53,261 nucleotides of DNA from Candidatus Poribacteria bacterium (GCA_022822215.1 JAJECD010000218.1:1-53261); one strand, 5' to 3'. Shown: positions 30,166 through 45,797, numbered from the stretch's first letter. The notes: a model not told the origin generated them from the letters alone. Made by a program: numbers and translations.

Positions 30166-31035
30166 TTACGAACCTGCTACAGGGATAAGGGATCCAATTT
30201 TCCTTTTCACGGGGCGCCCCTGTTTAATGAAGTTGACATCTTTAATTCCCATCGTATTTAACCAAGTAGTCCAATACGTTTTGATAATCTCAAAGTCTTG
30301 TAGGTAAGGAACGCCAGAACCTTTATCGTTCCGAAGAGCAATACCAGCCATTAAGAATTTCACATTGTAAGAGCTGAAATCACTTCCTATAGGCAATAAG
30401 CCTTCGTTTCCTTGTATTTTCTCTTTCCAATGCGGATCGTTCCGTAATTTGCTAACTTTCATAGATGTTCGTTTAGCACGTTTGGCTTTGATGTTTTTAT
30501 CAAAATCAAGGTAGCCGTCGGAAAGGCAGATGATAATATTCTGATAATCTTCAAAGAAGTAATCCTCTGCTTCATATTTAAACCATTCCCAGATGTCTGA
30601 ACCTGTTTGTTGGTGTTTATTAGCAAATTCGTATAATTTGGGAATTGTTTGTAGGACTGAATCCTTTTGCTCCATGAACTCCGGATAACTGCGTCCTGTT
30701 CCCGAGTCCTCAATCGTTAGTTTCTCCATGATCTGCCGTGGAATTGAAGGCGCTGTTGGCTGATTTGGAATAACAAAAGAGAGACGGTGTGGATATTGAA
30801 TGACTTCGCTTACTGCTAAATGAGCTTTAACAAGTTTGTCAAATTGGGTGACAACCTCTGTGATAATTTCGAGGTCCCTCGCTACTTGATCCGGATGTTT
30901 CGTTTCAGAAATACGATCTGACGTATCAATGACTACAATGACATTTACACCACCTTTAGATGAGGGGAAAGCCTCTCCATTTAATAAACAGAAAAGTACC
31001 ATCCATACAACTATAATTTTTTTTCCTTTTTGCAT
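30166..31035 (-). CDS. Exported VWA-like (Rossmannoid) protein, third gene of a three-gene operon
   Basis: Signal peptide MQKGKKIIVVWMVLFCLLNGEAF. VNVIVVIDTSDRISE and IIICLSDGYLDF resemble VWA strands beta1 and beta4. The MIDAS site is incomplete. No family recognised with confidence. Confidence 0.4.
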   Translation of the reverse strand: MQKGKKIIVVWMVLFCLLNGEAFPSSKGGVNVIVVIDTSDRISETKHPDQVARDLEIITEVVTQFDKLVKAHLAVSEVIQYPHRLSFVIPNQPTAPSIPRQIMEKLTIEDSGTGRSYPEFMEQKDSVLQTIPKLYEFANKHQQTGSDIWEWFKYEAEDYFFEDYQNIIICLSDGYLDFDKNIKAKRAKRTSMKVSKLRNDPHWKEKIQGNEGLLPIGSDFSSYNVKFLMAGIALRNDKGSGVPYLQDFEIIKTYWTTWLNTMGIKDVNFIKQGRPVKRKIGSLIPVAGS

Positions 31036-31046
31036 ATAAATCTCCG

Positions 31047-32600
31047 TTACGTTCTATTATCCGTGTATTTTTTAACCGTGTCGTCTTTTAAATCTTGGAT
31101 GTCTTGAATGTGTTCACGAACATCGGAAGGTAACTCAGCTTTACTTTGTGTAACATACCGACACCATCCGCTCACAAACTCATTTACTTGTGCTTCTAAT
31201 TTCTTTACGTCAACGATCTGTTTATCGAAAGAGTCTAATAAGTCGGCAATCTCGGTTTCGCACCGATTAATTTCCTTTTGAAAACTCTCTACTTTTTCAT
31301 TCTGTTCCTTAATCTGACTCAGCAAGCTTTCTCTTTCCGTGGTTAAGCGTGCAATTTCTGCCTGAATAGGTTGTTTATGATTATGTGTAAGGATTTCCAG
31401 CTCCTGTTTGGAAGATGTCTCAATGCTATTTTCGTAGTCCATTTTTTCCTGTACTAATTTACCGACCTTTCCTTTCAAATGCTCTATCTCAGTCGCTAAA
31501 ATAGCCTTCTGAACCATACGCTCATTCTGTTCTGTTCTTTTTATTTTATCCAAGTATTGAGCTTGGACTTCATCTTCGGGTGGGTTTGCTTTTTTCCACA
31601 TTTTTAAAACAAAATGTATGCCGAAACTAAGAAATACTGAAACGGCAAAGCCTAATAATAAAACCGAGAGAATTTCTAACCAATTATCCTGCCACAGATA
31701 CTCTCCTGACTCTAATCCTCTGGCCACTTTGCTTTCATATATATTCTGCGAAATCTTGTATGCAATGACTCCATCAAGTAGTAGAGTAGACAAACCCAAC
31801 CCTAAAACTCCGAACCACCACCAACCTCCGTTTTCTAAACAGAAGTGTATTAGAATTGCGAGCATCAAAAAAATTATGGGAAAGGCAAGGATAAACAAAT
31901 TTTTAGATTCCCACGCGTTAAACAAAGCGAAAGGATTAATGAATTCGTTTAACCTTTGTTCAACAGTTCCACTACCTGCTGTGAATGCTTTATCTCCTGC
32001 AGCACTATAAAAAATAAAAAGATAAAAAACCAGTCCAAAGAGTGCAATAGTGGCGAAACCAGCAAAAATATACTCAGGAATAGAGAAACGTGAAACTGAA
32101 GTTTTGTTAAGATTCGGTGGTTTTAACTCTGATTCAGTTGGTGCCTCCAAATCAGTTTCAAGACCGGCAAACGTTACCTGTTTTTCTTCTAATACTGTAG
32201 TCCGCTCATCAATTTTGTCTTTCAAGGCATCAAGGCGAGGATCCGGGGACGGAGGATCAGCAGCCATCGGAACCTCTAATTCCACCTGGAGTTTAACTAA
32301 CTCTGTGTCTTTCTCAGAAAGGTTTTCTTTTAATGTTTTGATGTCATCCAGTCTATCCAGTTTCTGTTGTTCAAGTCGTTCCTTGTCTACATTCAACCAC
32401 TCTATTTTCTCTTTGGTCTGTGAGTGGCTTATTCCACTTGTCAGTTCCTCATTACGGATAATAATATCAAGGTGGTTTTGTAATGTGTTTGTAACTCCTC
32501 TATTCGCCGCTGCACAAGCAAATCCATTATCAGCACTATGATAAGGCGTACCGTTGAAACCGAGATCTGCACCATTTCCATGGTTATCATTCATAAACAT
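31047..32600 (-). CDS. 517-aa membrane protein: coiled coil, 4 TM helices, coiled coil
   Basis: Heptad-rich charged N-terminal (~60-170) and C-terminal (~345-500) regions flank four hydrophobic helices (IFAGFATIALFGLVFYLFIFY; LFILAFPIIFLMLAILIHFCL; WWWFGVLGLGLSTLLLDGVIAY; ILSVLLLGFAVSVFLSFGIHFVL). Overlaps the upstream gene by 14 nt. Confidence 0.6.
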   Translation of the reverse strand: MFMNDNHGNGADLGFNGTPYHSADNGFACAAANRGVTNTLQNHLDIIIRNEELTSGISHSQTKEKIEWLNVDKERLEQQKLDRLDDIKTLKENLSEKDTELVKLQVELEVPMAADPPSPDPRLDALKDKIDERTTVLEEKQVTFAGLETDLEAPTESELKPPNLNKTSVSRFSIPEYIFAGFATIALFGLVFYLFIFYSAAGDKAFTAGSGTVEQRLNEFINPFALFNAWESKNLFILAFPIIFLMLAILIHFCLENGGWWWFGVLGLGLSTLLLDGVIAYKISQNIYESKVARGLESGEYLWQDNWLEILSVLLLGFAVSVFLSFGIHFVLKMWKKANPPEDEVQAQYLDKIKRTEQNERMVQKAILATEIEHLKGKVGKLVQEKMDYENSIETSSKQELEILTHNHKQPIQAEIARLTTERESLLSQIKEQNEKVESFQKEINRCETEIADLLDSFDKQIVDVKKLEAQVNEFVSGWCRYVTQSKAELPSDVREHIQDIQDLKDDTVKKYTDNRT

Positions 32601-32979
32601 TCCTCCTATTTGGGGCCGATGTTCTACGACTCACCCGATTTTCCACTGAGTCCGCCATTTTCTGGAAACGCGTTAGAAACTGTGATGTCCACTTCCGCCA
32701 ACCGGGAACCTCCAGTTCCTGTAGCAATTGATAAGCCTCCTCAGCTGGATACTCGAAAAATTCCCGGTTTTTGTTAACACGGTGCTGCTTCAGCTTTCTA
32801 TGCATTTCAACTTCAAGTTGCTCATGATTGTCACACGGAAACTCATACGCGACCTTGAACGGTTTTGGGACCCCTGTTTGATAGAGTTCATCTGCTCGTT
32901 CGCGTGCGGTTTTTGTAGTATGCCCGATCTTTATTAGGCCCGGCATGGCTTCATTCGTCAAGATATAGACACAACCCAT
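32587..32979 (-). CDS. T5orf172 / MUG113-type GIY-YIG-like domain protein
   Basis: GCVYILTNEAMPGLIKIGHTTKTARERADELYQTGVPKPFKVAYEF...EVEMHRKLKQHRVNKNREFFE matches the T5orf172 signature (YIL..IKIG.T....R..EL...GVP.PF.V...E..lH..l...R....EFF). Confidence 0.75.
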   Translation of the reverse strand: MGCVYILTNEAMPGLIKIGHTTKTARERADELYQTGVPKPFKVAYEFPCDNHEQLEVEMHRKLKQHRVNKNREFFEYPAEEAYQLLQELEVPGWRKWTSQFLTRFQKMADSVENRVSRRTSAPNRRNVYE

Positions 32980-33346: not shown

Positions 33347-33478
33347 TTTAAGAGAAGCTGTCTAAGTCAGAGGTTTTTTGTTGTTCCTTGGTATTTGCCG
33401 AAATTACGCGATAAAAATAGTCACAATAGGATTATAGCAAGAAAACAGAAATTTGTCAAATTATAGCGGATCTTAGGA

Positions 33479-34231
33479 TTAATTACGTCCTCCAGTTTGT
33501 AAACGGGCGAGTGCTTCTCGGAGTCGTGCGACTTCGGCTTCAGCGTTTTCGGCGCGTTGGGTTTCTTGTTGTGCACGGTTTTCAGCGTTCTCGGCACGGT
33601 TTTCAGCCAGTTCCGCACGGGCAACTGCTAACTCCGCGGGTGTCTGCAGCCATTCATCCAAAGCAGGATCGTAAATCCCTAAACCGACATCACTCACGTG
33701 GAAGTCTAAACCCAAAGCACTTGAGCGTAAACCGCCATCTGAACCCTCCGAAATCGGAGTATACGCACCATCAACCAATGTGAAACCCATCAGCGGTGAA
33801 GGTAGATACAAACCCTCCGCATCATATAAAAAGTAGTCTTGGATACCGAGTGAAGCGTAGAGTTCCATCTTGCGGCCCAAGTCGTTTTGATACGTGCTTT
33901 CGCTGGAAAACTCCATCGCAAAATCAGGCACCTTCCCTTCGTTCCAGACGAGATACGTCCGGCGGAGTTTCTTGCCTAAACCGAAAGCGACCAAGACATC
34001 AGGGGATACCGATTTACGCGGATCCCCCTTTACATAATACATCAATATATCACCGGAGACATAGACTTCCGGTCTGTCTTGGAAATATGCGTCGAGGACG
34101 TCTATCGTCCGCGTGAGGATACGTCTATGAAGGTCGCTGACTGCCATGGGTTTTCCATCCGAGTCTGGGTAAAGTTCCACGTCCTCTGTAGGTGCGTAAG
34201 CGACGAGGTCCTCTTTTGTATAGATTCCCAT
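33479..34231 (-). CDS. Uma2-family (DUF820) PD-(D/E)xK-like endonuclease with an Ala/Glu/Asn/Arg-rich repetitive C-terminal tail
   Basis: ELYPDSDGKPMAVSDLHRRIL...VYVSGDILMYY...SPDVLVAFG...VPDFAMEFSSEST...Y..LGIQDYFLYD. Tail: AELAENRAENAENRAQQETQRAENAEAEVARLREAL. Confidence 0.75.
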   Translation of the reverse strand: MGIYTKEDLVAYAPTEDVELYPDSDGKPMAVSDLHRRILTRTIDVLDAYFQDRPEVYVSGDILMYYVKGDPRKSVSPDVLVAFGLGKKLRRTYLVWNEGKVPDFAMEFSSESTYQNDLGRKMELYASLGIQDYFLYDAEGLYLPSPLMGFTLVDGAYTPISEGSDGGLRSSALGLDFHVSDVGLGIYDPALDEWLQTPAELAVARAELAENRAENAENRAQQETQRAENAEAEVARLREALARLQTGGRN

Positions 34232-34368: not shown

Positions 34369-36933
34369 TTAGAGTCTTGGATCGACAGCCTCGCTTTCGA
34401 GTGCGAGAACGCCGAAAATACACTCGTGGACACGCGATAAGGGTTCACGGCGAACGAAACGCTCCAGTGCCTCAACACCCAAGGCAAACTCTCTAAGTGC
34501 CAGAGAACGTTTGTGAGAAACGCCACGGGAACGGAGACGTTCTAAATTTTGCGGCAATGTATATTCGGGTCCATAGATAATCCGCAGGTATTCACGACCT
34601 CGGCACTTTACAGCGGGTTGCACCAACCCTCGCTTGCCTCGAACGACAAAATTCAGGGGTTTGATGACGGTGCCTTCGCCTCCGTGCACCGTGAGTTCTT
34701 CCCACTGCTGAATCGCTTCCGTTTGGCTTGTGTCATCGGTCAAGTCTACGATGCCGTATCGGGTTGAAAATAATAAGCCATCTTCAGAGTTTTGACAGAG
34801 TTGGGTGAGCATTCGCGTATGCCAGAGATGGTCTTTGTCAAAATACACCTTCCCTTCCGTTGCAAGTAAGTGGAACGGTGCTAACTTCAGATCTGTAATG
34901 GATTCGACCGACCAGCAGTATTGCTGATAAGCCTTGATGTATTCGGTTACTGCCGCTGTGCGTTGGCGATAGTTTTCCAAGATACCGTCCACATCAACAC
35001 CTCGTTCAGCAGTGGTTTTTAGGGAAGCAACTGCTGCTTCCAAAGCGACACGCGCCGATGTCCCGACCGGTGCGTACTGTTGCTTTAGCAACTCCTGCGC
35101 CTTCACCGACCAAGGCATCAACTCACAGTCGAGACACATCCAATCTGTATCAAGGGTTTCCCAATAGCCGCCCTTGTCCATCGCTGCTTTTACGTTTTCG
35201 AGTAAAGCACTTTCAACCGCCGCATCATTAAAGAAAGGTCTGCCGGTACGTGTGTAACAGACACCAAGCGTGTCGTCTGCAATGCCGAATCGTTTTCTTG
35301 CGGTTTCTGGGTCGCGGCAGATAACAAGAATCGCACGAGACCCCATGTGTTTTTCTTGCCAGATAACGTTAGTTACCCCTTGCTTGTGATAATAAGCGAA
35401 GGCTTCTGTGGGATGTTCGAGCAGGTCTGGCTTGTTCGTTGTTTCGGTTGGGGACATCGTGGGCGGAAGATATATAAGCCATTTGGGATGGACGGCGAAA
35501 CGGCTAATCGCTTCTAACGCCGTTATAGCATTCTCTTCGCGGATTGTTAGGTTGCCGTGTAACCGCGTGCTGATAACGCGTCTTCCCAGTACATCGTTGA
35601 TGTCTAAGATGTCGTCGTATGCCTGTGTTTTGATGGCAGATGGTTTATCCGTTTCATTAAGAAATGGTTTCACGGGTTCGTAATATGTCCGGTGAGCGGC
35701 GACAGATACCAACTCTTTTTCAGGGTATCGCAACGCCGTGAGTTCGCCGCCGAAAACGCATCCGGTATCGATATTGATTGTACGGTTTACCCATTGTGGC
35801 TCGGTAACTGGTGTGTGTCCGTAGACGACCGTTGCAGTCCCTCGGTATTCCTCTGCCCAGTTGAGCCGGATGGGGAATCCGAACTCATCAGTTTCTCCAG
35901 TGGTTTCGCCGTACATTGCGAATTCCCGTACGCGTCCTGATGCGCGTCCCTGTAGTTCCGCTTTCATTCCGGCGTGAGCGACAACTAACTTCCCGTCGTC
36001 AAGCACATAGTGGCTCACTAAGCCGTCTAAGAATTCTGTGATGTGTGTTTTAAATTCTGTTGATTCTACCTCTAATTGTGTCAGTGATTCCGCCAGTCCG
36101 TGTGTCCGCTTCACATTTCTCCCGCGGAGTGCCCGCACCAGTTTCACATCGTGATTCCCCGGTACGCAGAGCGCTGCACCGGTTTCATGCATCCGCATGA
36201 TAAGTCGCAAGACTTCAGGGACCTTTGGTCCTCGGTCAACATAATCTCCTACGAAAACGGCTTTTCTGCCTTCTGGCGGTTCAACAGTGAGGTCTCCGTT
36301 TGATTGTGTTGAGATTTGATAACCGAGTTTTTGGAGCAATTCAACCAGTTCGTCAAAACAACCGTGAATATCACCAATAATGTCAAAGGGACCTGGCTCG
36401 TCTGTACGGTTTGACCACAAGGGTTGTCGTTCGACGCGAGCGGCTGCAACGGTTTCGGGAGTAGACATCACATAGAGGAACTGCCGGAAACCTTCGCGCT
36501 TGAGATGACGCAGGGAACGACGCAGTTGCTGGTGCTGTTGTCGGATGACGTGCGGTTTTAAGTCGCGATCGGGTCGTGTTGCGTTTCTTTCCTGACAGAG
36601 TTTCGTGGGCATGTTGAACACGATGGCGACGGTTAGGTAATGATATTCGCGCGCCAGTGCAAGGAGCGGTTTTCGTGCGTCTCCCTGGACGTTGGTTGCG
36701 TCAATGACTGTCAGTTTTCCGGCGGCGAGCCGTTTGGCAGCGATGAACCGTAGTACCTCAAACGCGTCGTTTGTCGCTGTTTGGTCGGTTTCATCGTCCG
36801 AAACGAGACCTCTACAGAAATCGGATGAGAGGACTTCGGTCGGCTTAAAATGCTTACTTGCAAAGGTGGACTTGCCTGAACCTGAGGGTCCGATGAGGAG
36901 GACGAGTGAGGGTTCAGGAATTCTTAGAATCAT
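34369..36933 (-). CDS. pnkp: Polynucleotide kinase-phosphatase (kinase, metallophosphatase, ligase-like adenylyltransferase)
   Basis: P-loop GPSGSGKST; metallophosphoesterase GDIHGC..GDYVDRG..GNHD; C-terminal nucleotidyltransferase with EKHMGSRA (KxxG). 854 aa. 4-nt overlap with hen1. Confidence 0.85.
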   Translation of the reverse strand: MILRIPEPSLVLLIGPSGSGKSTFASKHFKPTEVLSSDFCRGLVSDDETDQTATNDAFEVLRFIAAKRLAAGKLTVIDATNVQGDARKPLLALAREYHYLTVAIVFNMPTKLCQERNATRPDRDLKPHVIRQQHQQLRRSLRHLKREGFRQFLYVMSTPETVAAARVERQPLWSNRTDEPGPFDIIGDIHGCFDELVELLQKLGYQISTQSNGDLTVEPPEGRKAVFVGDYVDRGPKVPEVLRLIMRMHETGAALCVPGNHDVKLVRALRGRNVKRTHGLAESLTQLEVESTEFKTHITEFLDGLVSHYVLDDGKLVVAHAGMKAELQGRASGRVREFAMYGETTGETDEFGFPIRLNWAEEYRGTATVVYGHTPVTEPQWVNRTINIDTGCVFGGELTALRYPEKELVSVAAHRTYYEPVKPFLNETDKPSAIKTQAYDDILDINDVLGRRVISTRLHGNLTIREENAITALEAISRFAVHPKWLIYLPPTMSPTETTNKPDLLEHPTEAFAYYHKQGVTNVIWQEKHMGSRAILVICRDPETARKRFGIADDTLGVCYTRTGRPFFNDAAVESALLENVKAAMDKGGYWETLDTDWMCLDCELMPWSVKAQELLKQQYAPVGTSARVALEAAVASLKTTAERGVDVDGILENYRQRTAAVTEYIKAYQQYCWSVESITDLKLAPFHLLATEGKVYFDKDHLWHTRMLTQLCQNSEDGLLFSTRYGIVDLTDDTSQTEAIQQWEELTVHGGEGTVIKPLNFVVRGKRGLVQPAVKCRGREYLRIIYGPEYTLPQNLERLRSRGVSHKRSLALREFALGVEALERFVRREPLSRVHECIFGVLALESEAVDPRL

Positions 36934-38348
36934 GTTATCTGTTTTCCCTGATCTTCTCGGGTAAAGACTGCCATCTGCGTTGGCGCGCCAACGTCTTCAG
37001 TTGTTGGTCCGATCGGGTGAAACGTAACAGCATAGCCGAAGCGTTCGGAAATACGAGTTGCCCAAGACTGAAACTCGTCCCGTGTCCACTCAAAACGGTG
37101 GTCTTTATGTCGGAAGTGTCCGCCTTGCAGGTGCTCAAATTGGGTGTTGTATTCTCTGTTGGGTGTTGTCAGCACAACTGTTCGGGGGCGGGCGAATTCA
37201 AAAAGGACGCGTTCAAAAGCGGCAAGTCGTGGTAAATCTAAGTGTTCAATCACCTCTATAATTGCAGCTGCGTCGTATCCGGCGAGACGTTTGTCTCGAT
37301 AGTTGAGGGATCCTTGGAACAAGTGAAGTCGTTTTTTTTCATTCTCTGGCAACCGATCGTAATGAAGCCGTTCATGCGCGATTTTCAAAGCACGGTGCGA
37401 AACGTCCATGCCGACAATCTCTTCAAACTGCTTTTCATGCAAAAGCTTACGAAGAAGTTTCCCTTCACCGCACCCTAAATCGAGAACGCGTTTCGCGCCG
37501 TACTGTTTAAGTGCTTCAGTAACCCTCTGCAAACGGACTTCATTCAGACCGATTGGTGCTTCGACTTGTGCTTCTTCTGCTGCTTGGATGGTCTCGTCGA
37601 TTTGTTCAGGATCTATATCGCATAATTGGGCGAGTGCTTGATTGGTAAGCGGACGTAGATGTTTCAAGTAGCGACGGACAATGGATTCATGTTCTGGATG
37701 TGCGGCGAGCCAATTTTCACCGTGTTTTAAGAGTTTCTCAATTTCTGCCTCGTCAACCCAGTAGTGTTTTTCATCGTCAAGCACCGGAATCAAAACGTAA
37801 AGGTGCGTGAGGAGTTCGCTTAAACGGCAAGTATTTTGCAGGGTGACAGTGAAATAGCGACTCTCGCCCCAAGCCGAAAATTGTGCATCTAAAATGTGCC
37901 TTTCCACTGTTATCTTATAACCGAGTGGCTCGAAAAGTCTCCGCAACAATTGTTCGCCACCTTGACACGGGAGGATGGATAACTTCGCCTTTAAAGGAAT
38001 CGCTGTCTCGGCAAGTTCTGGGCGTTCTTTGCTTTTACTGGATAACGCACTGCTAAACACCTGCGCGATTGCGACGCTCAGGAACGACGAAGCAACATAA
38101 GGACGATCGCTGACGTAGGGTGCCAGTGCGAAATTCTCCCCGAATCGTCCATGTGGGCGGCGGGTCAGCCCAACGGTATCTATATCGAGTAGCAGCGCTA
38201 CTGTGCACTTCTCCGGGCGTGCCTCTGGATAGAAGACGTGTGCTTGTCCAAAGGCAAGCTTAAAGGATTGGATTCGCTCAGGGTGTTTGTGCAACAGATA
38301 TCCGATGTCTGTCGCTGGGGAGTATGTCGTTGATATGGTCAGGAGCAT
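36930..38348 (-). CDS. hen1: 3'-terminal RNA ribose 2'-O-methyltransferase Hen1
   Basis: MLLTISTTYSPATDIGYLLHKHPER N-terminus. SAM motif VLDLGCGEGKLL and IEVIEHLD in the C-terminal domain. 472 aa, directly upstream of pnkp. Confidence 0.85.
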   Translation of the reverse strand: MLLTISTTYSPATDIGYLLHKHPERIQSFKLAFGQAHVFYPEARPEKCTVALLLDIDTVGLTRRPHGRFGENFALAPYVSDRPYVASSFLSVAIAQVFSSALSSKSKERPELAETAIPLKAKLSILPCQGGEQLLRRLFEPLGYKITVERHILDAQFSAWGESRYFTVTLQNTCRLSELLTHLYVLIPVLDDEKHYWVDEAEIEKLLKHGENWLAAHPEHESIVRRYLKHLRPLTNQALAQLCDIDPEQIDETIQAAEEAQVEAPIGLNEVRLQRVTEALKQYGAKRVLDLGCGEGKLLRKLLHEKQFEEIVGMDVSHRALKIAHERLHYDRLPENEKKRLHLFQGSLNYRDKRLAGYDAAAIIEVIEHLDLPRLAAFERVLFEFARPRTVVLTTPNREYNTQFEHLQGGHFRHKDHRFEWTRDEFQSWATRISERFGYAVTFHPIGPTTEDVGAPTQMAVFTREDQGKQIT

Positions 38349-42677: not shown

Positions 42678-45600
42678 ATGCCGAAGCTGAACCTGAAACT
42701 TACCCATAAAGCAATTCGAGACTACTACGCCACGCTCCAACAATACGAACAACACGACATCAGACACGAAGGTGCTGTCAGCTCACCCTTTGATACACTC
42801 TTACACACCTGCGCGAAACAGATAAACGCTACGCTCGTGCCGCAATATCAGATGCGCGCCCCAACAGGGAATCGGATCGTCATTGACGGCGTGGTACTCG
42901 ACGAATATGGACTCCCCTTCGCCTACTGGGAGGCGAAAGATATAGATGATAATCTCCTCAAGGCTGTCCAAAATAAACGCGATGCAGGCTATCCGCTTGA
43001 TAATATCCTCTTCCAAAACCCGCAGCGCGCTGTCCTGTATCAGAATGGACAGATAGCACTGGATCTGGACATCACTGAACCGGCGCGCCTGATTGCAGCT
43101 CTCCAATATCTGTTTTCTTATGTTCCACCCGCGCTCGACAATTGGCGGACGGCTGTCTCGGACTTCAGGGAGCATGTGCCGGATCTCGCAAACAAGCTAA
43201 AAGCACTCATTGAGCAACGGCACGAAACGGATCCAGCGTTCAAGAAAGCCTTCGCGGATTTTTACGAGACCTGCCGAACATCTATTAACCCGGACCTCTC
43301 ACAAGATGCTGTCGAAGAGATGCTCATCCAGCATATCCTCACCGAGCGTATCTTCCGCACTGTTTTTAACCGATCAGACTTCACGGGTTGGAATATCATC
43401 GCTATTGAGATTGAGAAAGTTAGTGCTGCGCTCATGCGGCATGCGATGAGTCGTGATGTGTTTCTTGAACCCTTGGATCGGTTCTATATCGCTATTGAAC
43501 AGGCGGCGACCCTCTGTCGGGACTTCTCCCAAAAACAGCACTTCCTCAACACGTTTTACGAGAAGTTTTTTCAGGGGTTCTCTGAAGATGTGGCGGATAC
43601 ACACGGTATCGTCTACACACCCCAACCCATCGTCGATTTCATGGTGAGAAGTGTGGAGCATATCCTTGAAACCGAGTTTGGTCGGTCGCTGTCGGACAGC
43701 GGTGTGCATATCATTGACCCGTTTGTAGGGACGGGGAACTTTATTGTTCGCCTCATGCAGGACATTCGAGGGACGGCGTTGGCGGAGAAATACTGCCATG
43801 AGTTGCACTGTAACGAGGTAATGCTCCTGCCCTACTATATTGCCAGTCTGAACATAGAACAAGAATTTTATCAACGGACGGGAGAGTATCTGCCGTTTGA
43901 GGGGATCGCGCTTGCGGATACGTTTGAGCTGCTGGAGCAGCAGCAAGGTGAACTCTTCACGCAGGAAAATACGGAACGGGTGAAGCGGCAGAAGGCGGCG
44001 GATATGTTTGTTGTTATTGGGAATCCGCCTTACAATGCATGGCAGGTCAACGATAGCGACAATAATCGGAATCGGAAATATCCGACAATGGACGCGCGGA
44101 TTGTGGGTACTTATGCTGCAGATTCCAAGGCAACCCTCAAAAATGCGCTCTACGACCCTTATGTAAAGGCGATTCGATGGGCATCTGACCGGATTGGTGA
44201 GGAAGGGGTTGTTGCTTTTATTACAAACAACGGGTTTCTTGACGGTTTGGCGTTTGACGGGATGCGGAAACACCTATCAGATGATTTCGACGCGATTTAT
44301 ATTTTGGATCTGGGTGGGAATGCACGGAAGGGATTGCAGGTCTCCAATGCGAATGTGTTCGGCATCCGAGTTGGTGTGAGCATCAACCTTTTTGTTAAGA
44401 ACAAACAGCACCCATCGGAAAAACCCAATATCTTTTATTATCGCACCGATGACTTGTGGAATAAAGAAAGGAAGTTTAATTTTCTCGACGAACACGAACA
44501 CATCGGAAATGTGGAATGGAACCCAGTTCAACCGAATAAGCAGCACATCTGGTTAACCGAAGGTCTCCATCCCGAATTTGATACGTTTATTCCGATGGGG
44601 ACTAAGGAAGCGAAGGCACAGAAAGGTGCTGCGGTAAATGTGATTTTCACAATCTATAGTGCAGGTGTTAAAACAGGGCGCGATGCTTGGGTTTACAACT
44701 TCAATGAAAATGCACTTAGCGAGAATATTCGGGGAATGATTCGGACTTACAACGCGGAGGTGGATAGGTGGCAGCGGCGGGAGAATCAGCGAGTAAGTGT
44801 TAATGATTTCGTGGTTTACGACGATAAAGAAATCAAATGGGATCGGGAATTACGTCGGCACTTGCAACGCGGTAGGTATGCTGAATGGACGGAAAACAAA
44901 GTGAGAAATTTACTCTACCGACCCTTCACAAAATCAAATCTATTTTTTGACCGGGTTCTGAACAATTGTGTCTATCTGTTTCCATCCTTTTTTTCAACAC
45001 CTGAGACGGAAACAGAAAATCGGGTGATAATCGTCAGTGAGCACGGCTTCCGCGCAAGTTTCAGTACCTTGATGACGAATCTGATTCCTGACGTTCACAC
45101 ACTCGCGTCGAGTGATAATTTTCAATGCTTTCCTTTCTACACCTACGATGAGGATGGCACAAACCGACAGGAGAACATCACGGATTGGGCATTAGCGAAG
45201 TTCCGAACCCACTATGGCGATGGGACTATCTCCAAGTGGGACATCTTCCACTATACATACGCACTCTTGCACCACCCCGTTTATCGTGAGAAATATGAGA
45301 AGAATCTCAAACGGGATTTGCCGCGTATTCCAACCCTTCTTGCATCCAACCCCCCTATATCCCCCCTTATCAGGGGGGCAGAGATTGCCAACGATTTCTG
45401 GGGATTTGCTAAAGCGGGTGCGGAATTGGCAGACTTGCACGTTAACTATGAGTCTGTCCCCAAATACGAAGGGGTGAGATATATTGAGACAGAGGGGATG
45501 TCGGTAGATTGGCGCGTTGAAAAGATGCGGTTGTCCAAAGACAAGACGCAGCTGAAATATAACGATTTTCTGACACTGGACGGTATCCCTGCAAAAGCGT

Positions 45601-45797
45601 TTGACTATCGGTTAGGCAACCGGTCGGCGTTGGAGTGGGTGGTGGATCAGTATCGGGTCAAGACAGACAAAAGGAGTGGGATTGTGAACGATCCGAATCG
45701 TGCGGATGAGCCGCGGTATATTGTGGATTTGATTGGGCGGGTTATCCATGTGAGTCTGAGGACGGTGGAGATTGTGGCGGACTTGCCTGCCTTGTAG
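42678..45797 (+). CDS. Single-polypeptide type IIG / ISP-like restriction-modification enzyme (PD-(D/E)xK-like N-terminus, gamma-class N6-adenine MTase, ISP-type C-terminal specificity domain)
   Basis: IDGVVLDEYGLPFAYWEAKD (D..ExK). IDPFVGTGNF (motif I). VIGNPPYNAW (motif IV). C-terminus ALEWVVDQYRVKTDKRSGIVNDPN...VSLRTVEIVADLP is typical of type ISP enzymes. No helicase domain. Confidence 0.6.
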   Translation: MPKLNLKLTHKAIRDYYATLQQYEQHDIRHEGAVSSPFDTLLHTCAKQINATLVPQYQMRAPTGNRIVIDGVVLDEYGLPFAYWEAKDIDDNLLKAVQNKRDAGYPLDNILFQNPQRAVLYQNGQIALDLDITEPARLIAALQYLFSYVPPALDNWRTAVSDFREHVPDLANKLKALIEQRHETDPAFKKAFADFYETCRTSINPDLSQDAVEEMLIQHILTERIFRTVFNRSDFTGWNIIAIEIEKVSAALMRHAMSRDVFLEPLDRFYIAIEQAATLCRDFSQKQHFLNTFYEKFFQGFSEDVADTHGIVYTPQPIVDFMVRSVEHILETEFGRSLSDSGVHIIDPFVGTGNFIVRLMQDIRGTALAEKYCHELHCNEVMLLPYYIASLNIEQEFYQRTGEYLPFEGIALADTFELLEQQQGELFTQENTERVKRQKAADMFVVIGNPPYNAWQVNDSDNNRNRKYPTMDARIVGTYAADSKATLKNALYDPYVKAIRWASDRIGEEGVVAFITNNGFLDGLAFDGMRKHLSDDFDAIYILDLGGNARKGLQVSNANVFGIRVGVSINLFVKNKQHPSEKPNIFYYRTDDLWNKERKFNFLDEHEHIGNVEWNPVQPNKQHIWLTEGLHPEFDTFIPMGTKEAKAQKGAAVNVIFTIYSAGVKTGRDAWVYNFNENALSENIRGMIRTYNAEVDRWQRRENQRVSVNDFVVYDDKEIKWDRELRRHLQRGRYAEWTENKVRNLLYRPFTKSNLFFDRVLNNCVYLFPSFFSTPETETENRVIIVSEHGFRASFSTLMTNLIPDVHTLASSDNFQCFPFYTYDEDGTNRQENITDWALAKFRTHYGDGTISKWDIFHYTYALLHHPVYREKYEKNLKRDLPRIPTLLASNPPISPLIRGAEIANDFWGFAKAGAELADLHVNYESVPKYEGVRYIETEGMSVDWRVEKMRLSKDKTQLKYNDFLTLDGIPAKAFDYRLGNRSALEWVVDQYRVKTDKRSGIVNDPNRADEPRYIVDLIGRVIHVSLRTVEIVADLPAL
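45349..45379. repeat. CCCCC-TTATCA-GGGGG palindromic mini-element embedded in frame in the R-M gene
   Basis: aacccccctatatccccccttatcaggggggc encodes ..NPPISPLIRGA.. between the conserved PRIP and DFWGFAKAG. Confidence 0.7.

Follow-up and report, generated by a model that had tools for sequence, protein, structure and literature searches.

A three-gene module in a 53,261-nt contig of Candidatus Poribacteria bacterium (GCA_022822215.1 JAJECD010000218.1:1-53261; this whole stretch of DNA is called the window below) appears, from comparison with its homologues, to be the Poribacteria variant of a conserved two-gene core that accepts a plug-in head. The core is formed by gene b, which encodes a coiled-coil protein with four transmembrane (TM) helices, and gene c, which encodes an exported protein resembling the von Willebrand factor A (VWA) domain; in the window, the head is encoded by gene a and is a stand-alone T5orf172 nuclease-like protein. 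The logic of such a module has precedents in the SNIPE and Dionysus systems, so it is not categorically new, and because the core recurs with a range of DNA-cutting enzymes, the module is a credible candidate for a new anti-phage or anti-plasmid system. An earlier reading of this DNA, made from the sequence only, had taken the trio as a whole for an undescribed conflict or defence module. Its direction, gene calls, domain assignments and topology have stood; its scope has not, as the trio does recur (in 21 other loci) but the conserved unit is b plus c, with T5orf172 as one of several heads. The three genes are as follows.

32587..32979, minus strand: gene a, 130 aa, T5orf172 nuclease-like protein
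31047..32600, minus strand: gene b, 517 aa, four-TM coiled-coil membrane protein
30166..31035, minus strand: gene c, 289 aa, exported VWA-like protein

In the open reading frame (ORF) listing, genes a and b overlap by 14 nt and genes b and c are separated by 11 nt; the database version of gene b starts two codons later and is 515 aa long. The module has a GC content of 0.400 against a mean of 0.476 for the window (standard deviation 0.026, equal-sized windows) and is the window's lowest-GC stretch, with values of 0.468 in gene a and 0.39 in genes b and c. The sequence-only reading had described three packed minus-strand genes in an AT-rich islet, and the sizes, overlap and gap that it gave match the ORF listing exactly, while the islet coincides with the GC minimum.

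The constancy of the b-c pair emerged from a genome scan that used one genome per GTDB species and yielded 50 loci, of which 47 belong to metagenome-assembled genomes of Candidatus Poribacteria, two to Latescibacterota and one to an uncultured bacterium. Gene b lies directly upstream of gene c on the same strand in 48 of these loci, the other two being truncated, and the same adjacency is found in essentially all metagenome loci with room for both genes and in essentially all of the more than 130 loci examined overall. About 100 close homologues were collected for each of the two proteins, all annotated as 'hypothetical' and none with a Pfam domain. What precedes b varies among the 50 loci:

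Stand-alone T5orf172 protein: 21 loci and the window, with a gap to b of -29 to +11 nt
T5orf172 domain fused in frame to the N-terminus of b: 6 loci, 741-762 aa
HSDR_N_2 domain (PD-(D/E)xK) fused to the N-terminus of b: 16 loci
Staphylococcal-nuclease (SNase) domain fused to the N-terminus of b: 1 locus, L028 (PF00565, 3.7e-22)
Truncated or decayed: 6 loci

Three unrelated nuclease folds swap at one position before b. The HSDR_N_2 heads keep the catalytic-type motif E...aDV...ECK...QLKxYL, and the nuclease heads carry no signal peptides.

The family is not restricted to Poribacteria, a possibility ruled out by a profile search with the c alignment, which recovered 776 clusters at 50% identity (548 at E<=1e-10). 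Named members of the c family come from Chryseobacterium, Bergeyella, Soonwooa, Saprospiraceae, Ignavibacteriales and Desulfuromonadales, and the family as a whole ranges over Poribacteria, Latescibacterota, Bacteroidota, Ignavibacteriota and Desulfuromonadales. In the loci from cultured genomes and metagenomes, c is again preceded by a protein of about 420 aa that is homologous to b from end to end (hhalign probability 99.94%, E 5.7e-37) and shares its xGF motif, TM core and FxSGW motif. The head of this sister clade is a different one: a TerB protein of about 134 aa precedes b in 60 of 65 loci, with a gap of about 4 nt, and the Pfam TerB domain was confirmed in all 35 upstream proteins tested. 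In one lineage, a DUF4258 protein takes the place of TerB. A TerB gene hidden in the Poribacteria-type loci was ruled out, with none in the 50 loci or in the window.

In the TerB-type loci, nucleases may occur at the other end of the module. A nuclease gene directly follows c in 14 of 63 non-redundant loci (12 of the SNase family and two of Endonuclease_NS), its product carries a signal peptide or lipobox, and the SNase gap is 0-11 nt in seven of the 12 loci. Examples, among others, are:

L086 1555-2052, L087 5550-6047, L096 5891-6385, L098 1772-2281 and L131 5881-6369: exported SNase lipoprotein gene after c
L053 7031-7795 and L094 2871-3488: secreted Endonuclease_NS gene after c

The SNase and Endonuclease_NS loci are thus a variant of four genes whose nuclease is periplasmic. 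In all, nucleases of four folds occur with the b-c core, either in the cytoplasm (as a separate upstream gene or fused N-terminally) or in the periplasm (as an exported lipoprotein).

The pair is also found as a single polypeptide. Plasmid pSP2_2 of Runella sp. SP2 (NZ_CP031032.1, 57373-59487; loci L139/L141) encodes a b-c fusion of 704 aa, WP_164490312.1, in which hidden Markov models assign residues 42-423 to b (6e-47) and residues 467-702 to c (4e-45), with a fifth TM helix at residues 446-464 between them. The fusion bears out that b and c work together and settles their relative topology, with the C-terminus of b and the c domain on opposite sides of the membrane. This relative topology agrees with the signal peptides and lipoboxes of c, the lack of signal peptides on the heads, and the charge bias and even number of TM helices of b. 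The head varies while the adjacency of b and c is constant; the conserved unit is b plus c rather than the trio.

Gene a matches the Pfam T5orf172 family (PF10544) over profile positions 1-99 of 101 with 62.2 bits, where the cutoff is 20 (E 7.1e-17), and MUG113 with an E value of 2.6e-15; no match was obtained in a PDB sequence search. Residues Y5, K17-I18-G19, T21, R28, E56, H60, R67 and R72-E73-F74-F75 are invariant among 21 homologues, stand-alone and fused together. Gene a is a member of T5orf172, within the GIY-YIG superfamily, and its catalytic motifs are intact. Nuclease activity has been demonstrated for the T5orf172 protein Odn of phage ICP1 (PMC8263062), and phages commonly carry T5orf172 genes as mobile homing-endonuclease genes (PMC10448857). 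The protein has no TM segment in a hydrophobicity scan and ends in a basic and aromatic tail (WRKWTSQFLTRF; WRKWTSxFLTRF) that is conserved in the stand-alone forms and missing from the fused forms.

The product of gene b has four hydrophobic helices in a Kyte-Doolittle scan, at approximately residues 176-198, 235-255, 262-283 and 310-331. Lysine and arginine are concentrated N-terminally of TM1 and behind TM4, and both long loops carry acidic residues, a charge pattern that fits the positive-inside rule and an N-in/C-in topology. The AlphaFold2 (AF2) model is all-helical, with long helices at residues 36-109, 121-152 and 342-460 and a mean confidence (pLDDT) of 75.6. Three segments can be distinguished:

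32145..32495, minus strand: b residues 36-152, N-terminal cytoplasmic coiled-coil hairpin (AF2 helices 36-109 and 121-152)
31608..32075, minus strand: b residues 176-331, four-TM core including conserved periplasmic loop 1 (about residues 199-234; Kyte-Doolittle scan)
31053..31577, minus strand: b residues 342-516, C-terminal cytoplasmic coiled coil and helical end domain (AF2 model and invariant residues)

The hairpin is preceded by an invariant motif, D24-x-G26-F27-x-C29-A-A31. The four-TM core is the region best conserved across phyla, and periplasmic loop 1 is among the best-conserved segments. The C-terminal coiled coil is a 119-residue helix (342-460) followed by the end domain F475..G478-W479..Y482, which contains the FxSGW motif.

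No Pfam, NCBIfam or PADLOC family was assigned to gene b. DUF4407 (PF14362) scored 14 bits, below its cutoff of 31.3 (E 0.03), and 16-19 bits in a few relatives; a weak NCBIfam match to the alpha-pore-forming toxin MakE (3e-4) falls within the coiled coil. When b and c were scanned against PADLOC, Pfam and NCBIfam, the matches to LmuB, JetC, PbeC, ZorA, SMC, MakE and DUF4407 were dismissed as coiled-coil noise. Foldseek and PDB profile searches with b returned generic coiled coils only (Rad50, MukB, dynein, keratin, haemagglutinin), and no relationship to ClyA, Hbl or MotA was found in them.

Gene c begins with a hydrophobic segment that follows the residues K-G-K-K:

30961..31017, minus strand: c residues 7-25, signal peptide or signal anchor

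In most Bacteroidota homologues, the corresponding N-terminal segment is followed by a lipobox cysteine, which makes these proteins exported lipoproteins, and in the Runella fusion its counterpart is the fifth TM helix. No Pfam, NCBIfam or PADLOC family includes gene c, and the window protein itself has no Pfam VWA hit; the Pfam VWA family (PF00092) appears below threshold in nine of 77 relatives, with a best E value of 0.0029. Structure is more informative. The AF2 model has a pLDDT of 90 and a predicted TM-score (pTM) of 0.86, and the top ten PDB matches found by Foldseek, together with nearly all others, are of VWA type (TRAP, TFIIH p44/Ssl1, factor B, Sec24, CMG2, Ku). These matches have E values around 3e-4 at 8-14% identity, the best being 4f1j (E 2.9e-4, TM-score 0.52 on the target). 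Conserved loops of c occupy, in the model, the strand-loop positions of the metal ion-dependent adhesion site (MIDAS) motif, namely the beta1 loop D37-T-S39-D-R41, the alpha3-alpha4 loop T144-G-S146-D147 and the beta4 loop S172-D173-G174. In the pattern DxSxS...T...D, R41 replaces the second MIDAS serine, and this arginine is invariant in 32 close and 77 distant relatives. On the evidence of the model, the protein has a divergent VWA fold with a modified MIDAS. Some homologues (P0239, P0264, P0269, P0290, P0319 and P0360, of 480-540 aa) are lengthened by C-terminal extensions of 130-250 aa that lack any Pfam hit; a common C-terminal domain (…LPNLRAKF…ILDGSV…) was observed in P0264, P0290 and P0319.

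At the level of the individual proteins, the sequence-only reading has fared well. It had identified a as a stand-alone T5orf172/MUG113 protein, which the two profile matches bear out, and b as a protein with four central TM helices and a coiled coil on either side, on which the hydrophobicity scan and the AF2 model agree. It had assigned to c a signal peptide, VWA-like strands and an incomplete MIDAS, all recovered in the AF2 model, the Foldseek matches and the arginine at position 41. Its placement of both coiled coils on one side of the membrane and of the VWA-like protein on the other is supported by the charge bias, the N-terminal fusions, the lipoboxes and the b-c fusion.

Comparison with known systems gave partial likenesses. 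The trio matches no named system in PADLOC-DB v2, as the sequence-only reading had also supposed, and literature searches (DUF4407; T5orf172 with vWA) returned no description of the module. Beyond the nuclease domain, no component appears from these searches to belong to a described family. The closest analogue is SNIPE (PD-lambda-1), a GIY-YIG nuclease bound to the membrane; it cleaves the DNA of phages while this is being injected, and becomes toxic once its membrane anchor is removed (PMC13190303). The gene a domain matches the PADLOC profiles PDLC03977 (9.9e-8) and PDLC03976 (1.1e-5) at profile positions 356-449. SNIPE places its nuclease at the cytoplasmic face of the inner membrane, as is proposed for the module, and in both, elongated helical segments join the membrane and the nuclease; the proposed logic, in which a tether prevents self-cleavage and entering DNA is cut, would be common to the two. 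However, DUF4041 belongs to SNIPE, and neither a, b nor c has a DUF4041 hit at E<=1. SNIPE is one polypeptide (TM-DUF4041-nuclease), whereas the nuclease of the module is either separate or fused N-terminally to a four-TM core, the anchor has coiled coils on both sides, an exported VWA-like partner is obligatory, and T5orf172 can be replaced by other nuclease folds or by TerB. Given the lack of DUF4041 and the different architecture, the module is not SNIPE.

Dionysus, a validated anti-phage system of Gamma- and Betaproteobacteria without a nuclease, consists of DinA (MAEBL-like with TM), DinB (TerB) and DinC (four-TM, resembling alpha-PFTs, the alpha-pore-forming toxins) (bioRxiv 10.1101/2025.09.30.679545). 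Compared by description, its three genes and the pairing of a small TerB protein with an all-helical four-TM protein give the outline of the TerB-b-c clade, but the gene order differs, MAEBL-like DinA stands in contrast to exported VWA-like c, and the window version has no TerB. TerB also occurs, in addition to Dionysus, in the validated defence systems Shango and Bunzi (cited in 10.1101/2025.09.30.679545). The systems Zorya (ZorAB plus ZorC/D) and Kiwa (KwaAB) share a concept with the proposed module, in which an event at the envelope is coupled to an effector that targets DNA by way of an inner-membrane complex with a long cytoplasmic coiled coil; unlike them, the module has no MotA/ExbB-like channel, ZorB, KwaA or KwaB. 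PADLOC ZorA models match b with E values of 0.0038-0.52, confined to the coiled coil, and there is no ZorB-like gene. Residues 2-113 of gene a match PDLC05041 of the PADLOC candidate PDC-S57 (1.8e-33), but cover only profile positions 6-114 of 212, so that a lacks the C-terminal half, and PDC-S57 is a single-gene T5orf172 candidate without b or c. Finally, VWA proteins (PF00092/PF13519; TerY; BatA/BatB) share with c the fold and the positions of the conserved loops as in the MIDAS motif, but c falls below the Pfam thresholds and has its invariant arginine in place of the second MIDAS serine. TerY is cytoplasmic, whereas c is exported or lipid-anchored, and the module has neither the kinase/phosphatase partner of TerY-P nor a MoxR partner; no kinase, PP2C phosphatase or TerZABCDE genes of a TerY-P or Ter cluster were found beside it. 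The module is thus neither Zorya nor TerY-P, and gene a is not a full PDC-S57.

The Poribacteria module occurs in at least four distinct conserved chromosomal contexts:

G1, the context of the window: Hen1, Pnkp, (Uma2), module, NosD-like, glycosyltransferase
G2: PhyH, TIM barrel, RraA, (Uma2), module, CysK, PAPS reductase, ThiS, JAB
G3: small unknown proteins, module, sigma-54 activator
G4: AAA_35/NERD, module, XPB, DUF790

The gene order of the window is shared with several Poribacteria loci, and within these conserved settings the module itself is strikingly variable. When the window is compared with loci L024, L035, L020 and L043, the flanking proteins are 87-98% identical, while identities drop to 63-64% for a, 29-43% for b and 38-44% for c. 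For c, the median identity is 42% (range 37-98%) across 50 pairs of loci in which the flanks reach 85% identity or more. In L020, the module lies beyond Hen1-Pnkp on the other side, and the Pnkp/NosD-like junction is empty. Several genomes contain two copies of the module with different heads. In decayed copies, only 75-273 aa of b are left, or c survives as a fragment of 104 aa, at sites that are otherwise conserved:

L008 7599-7826, L030 7619-7963, L045 7233-7898, L050 7983-8297 and L032 5805-6626: decayed module copies

Allele replacement between conserved flanks, low GC content, paralogy and decay together are the pattern of defence cassettes in chromosomal hotspots. For sponge symbionts, these loci document chromosomal hotspots at which genomes that are nearly identical elsewhere swap alleles of a single system.

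The neighbours of the module in the window are:

33431..33459, minus strand: sigma-70-type promoter-like site, TTGACA-17-TATAAT plus extended TG (TTGACAAATTYCTG...TATAAT), 12 of 12 consensus positions
33479-34231, minus strand: Uma2 gene, assigned through its L043 homologue (91% identical to the window protein; Pfam Uma2 4.9e-17)
34369-38348, minus strand: Pnkp-Hen1 RNA-repair pair, by PDB sequence matches (Pnkp, 2.5e-168 to 4drf; Hen1, 1.2e-91)
42678-45797, plus strand: DrdV/LlaGI-like single-chain restriction-modification (R-M) enzyme, 1039 aa (PDB 7lo5, 6.5e-194)

The promoter-like site, about 450 nt upstream of gene a, probably drives the operon. Its 18-nt core occurs once in the window against 0.02 occurrences expected by chance, and the site is found once each upstream of the module in L020 (5831-5848), L024 (5337-5354), L035 (5334-5351) and L043 (3388-3405). 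In L020, it travels with the module, though the module occupies another position there. Apart from this site, no conservation was detected in the leader upstream of gene a when related loci were compared, and an Rfam search of the window gave no match.

The presence of Uma2, Pnkp-Hen1 and an R-M enzyme nearby, as listed in the sequence-only reading, was confirmed by the Pfam match of the Uma2 homologue and by the PDB matches. Uma2 is an insertion polymorphism that is present in the window and L043 and absent from the same spot in L024 and L035; copies of Uma2 flank the module in another chromosomal context as well (L009, L011, L027). Pnkp-Hen1 is 87-95% identical in related Poribacteria genomes, and the Pnkp-Hen1 and glycosyltransferase genes are conserved chromosomal neighbours in related Poribacteria rather than a mobile defence island. 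The idea of a Pnkp-Hen1/Uma2 defence island carrying the module was ruled out by these conserved syntenic flanks.

A link to defence genes is found elsewhere in the family. In a scan of 149 dereplicated neighbours within 4 kb against PADLOC, strong matches were obtained to a CBASS cyclase (7e-149), a TIR effector (2e-119) and a type II methyltransferase (1e-105), and further strong matches to Cas1/Cas2, MADS components, PbeA, AriA, HEC-01A and PDC-S03. These matches are no more than suggestive of a defence association. A complete type III-B CRISPR-Cas locus surrounds the Runella b-c fusion gene, with cas6, cmr1, cas10, cmr3-6, csx2 and a WYL gene upstream; the CRISPR-associated primase-polymerase (CAPP)-cas2-cas1 adaptation genes begin 31 nt downstream on the same strand. 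This locus may link the membrane module to CRISPR adaptation or to type III accessory functions. A phage- or plasmid-borne module was ruled out, the family being essentially absent from mobile elements. The original suggestion of a conflict or defence module is favoured by the head swaps, fusions, divergent alleles and some CBASS, Cas, MADS and R-M neighbours; the part that invoked the Pnkp-Hen1 side does not stand, as that side is not a mobile island.

Additional genes were observed near some module loci. A small DUF6804 membrane protein is encoded within about 1 kb downstream of c in 13 TerB-type loci, including near-duplicates, and a protein of about 150 aa with no Pfam hit (MNYYYINTDTDALGYSPHAKWIKH...GDxLFMY...GVVAAG; cluster 11) flanks the HSDR_N::b-c module on both sides, its upstream copy overlapping b by 4 nt in several loci. 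The latter looks PUA/EVE-like by eye and may be a further component or a duplicated flank. One locus has a T5orf172-TPR protein about 2 kb upstream of a T5orf172::b fusion.

L051 8912-9199, L056 6910-7206, L070 5923-6240, L072 1708-1995 and L107 6007-6309: DUF6804 protein genes
L031 5128-5598 and 8976-9437, also L033, L036, L039, L042 and L048: genes for the protein of about 150 aa
L038 2120-3403: T5orf172-TPR protein, 427 aa

Because nuclease heads are positioned at the cytoplasmic N-terminal arm of b and because SNIPE offers a precedent, it is proposed that b and c form a chassis, anchored in the envelope, on which a nuclease is kept at the inner membrane and cuts DNA as it comes in, with a logic like that of SNIPE; this could well be so, although it cannot quite be called probable. 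In this proposal, b would be an inner-membrane scaffold, probably oligomeric, with both long coiled-coil arms in the cytoplasm. The exported c protein would sit at the periplasmic surface, where the conserved periplasmic loop 1 of b is its obvious and probable docking site, and would present a VWA-like ligand-binding face with its modified MIDAS. The C-terminal tail of a would attach it to the cytoplasmic N-terminal arm of b, a role played in relatives by direct fusion; the conserved tail may dock a on b or on the membrane. Such a tether would keep the nuclease off the chromosome. An envelope event, whether phage genome injection or another form of DNA entry, would be registered by c and b, and the nuclease would then attack this DNA at the membrane as it enters; c and b would supply localisation, a trigger or both. 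That a docks on b and that c does so too is inferred, as are the trigger, the DNA target and any defence phenotype.

Several observations weigh against this proposal. Envelope sensing by c is pure conjecture, the invariant arginine in its MIDAS-like site argues against classical metal-mediated ligand binding, and the AF2 model of b has a low pTM of 0.37. Family-wide, most neighbours of the module are housekeeping genes. A tblastn search with a b protein gave one hit, that of Runella, among 72,556 plasmids; no hits were found among 50,697 phage genomes, and one contig-end hit was found among 2.9 million viral contigs. The usual upstream partner in the family is TerB (60 of 65 loci) and not a nuclease, and in the approximately 22% of TerB-type loci that have a nuclease nearby, it is periplasmic rather than cytoplasmic. 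The TerB majority and the periplasmic nucleases imply that a single mechanism of a cytoplasmic nuclease at the entry site cannot cover the whole family.

In a broader conception, b and c would form a phylum-spanning 'DNA-entry sentinel' chassis, in which a periplasmic pseudo-MIDAS receptor resembling VWA acts through a four-TM coiled-coil transducer on interchangeable outputs, among them cytoplasmic nucleases with any of three folds, TerB or DUF4258, and also nucleases that are exported. This conception is rather improbable. Alternatively, the module might act by abortive infection, with the head, whether nuclease-fold or TerB, sensing a cue in the cytoplasm (for example, foreign DNA or membrane stress), the signal passing along the coiled coils, the four-TM core of b opening or perturbing the membrane as the effector, and c serving as a periplasmic brake or anchor. 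The constancy of b-c beside a variable head is in keeping with this, as sensors vary in some systems, and so are the headless b-c fusion within a type III CRISPR locus, a setting in which accessory membrane effectors are known, and the pairing of TerB with a four-TM alpha-PFT-like protein in Dionysus (bioRxiv 10.1101/2025.09.30.679545). The weak MakE match of b (3e-4) would also fit, but it falls in the coiled coil and is unsupported by Foldseek or PDB profile searches. Furthermore, catalytic residues are kept in all nuclease heads, while pure sensors usually lose them, the SNase head is a plain degradative enzyme, and the exported nucleases after c have no place in such a scheme, which is considered unlikely.

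It is similarly improbable that the system does not serve immunity at all and that TerB-b-c acts in envelope stress, membrane homeostasis or extracellular or periplasmic DNA processing (DNA scavenging or uptake control), with the Poribacteria forms using cytoplasmic nucleases for the same housekeeping task. TerB, the commonest head, is a stress- and membrane-associated domain, exported SNase lipoproteins are typical of DNA scavenging, and the family is widespread (776 clusters at 50% identity), chromosomal, located among housekeeping genes and almost never found on plasmids or phages. Nevertheless, allele divergence between near-identical flanks, shuffling, paralogues and frequent decay are unusual for housekeeping functions, a cytoplasmic, membrane-tethered restriction-type nuclease has no obvious role in scavenging, one case is embedded in a CRISPR-Cas operon, and TerB is present in validated defence systems (Shango, Bunzi, Dionysus). 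Hardly credible is the idea that gene a is an unrelated selfish T5orf172 homing-endonuclease gene and that the trio is accidental. Such domains are common in phage homing-endonuclease genes (PMC10448857), and the GC content of gene a (0.468) exceeds that of b and c (0.39), but a lies directly upstream of b in 21 other loci, at a distance of -29 to +11 nt, has a conserved tail specific to its family, and occupies a position that other nuclease folds take as well; the in-frame a::b fusions in six loci effectively refute it.

The b and c families are large, cross-phylum and wholly unannotated, and the natural head swaps (T5orf172, PD-(D/E)xK, SNase, TerB), together with the b-c fusion in a CRISPR locus, offer direct experimental handles on their function. 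Should the module not serve immunity, it still defines a widespread envelope module linked to nucleases. If it does act in defence, it would represent a new architecture among the systems of envelope-acting, genome-entry immunity (SNIPE, Zorya, Kiwa, Dionysus) and would be the first of them in which a VWA-like partner in the periplasm, a membrane scaffold with two coiled-coil arms and a plug-in nuclease come together. And if the sentinel conception were true, foreign DNA would be marked or attacked as it crosses the envelope and may feed spacer acquisition, and b-c would constitute a family of its own in transmembrane immune signalling, new and separate from Zorya, Kiwa and SNIPE.

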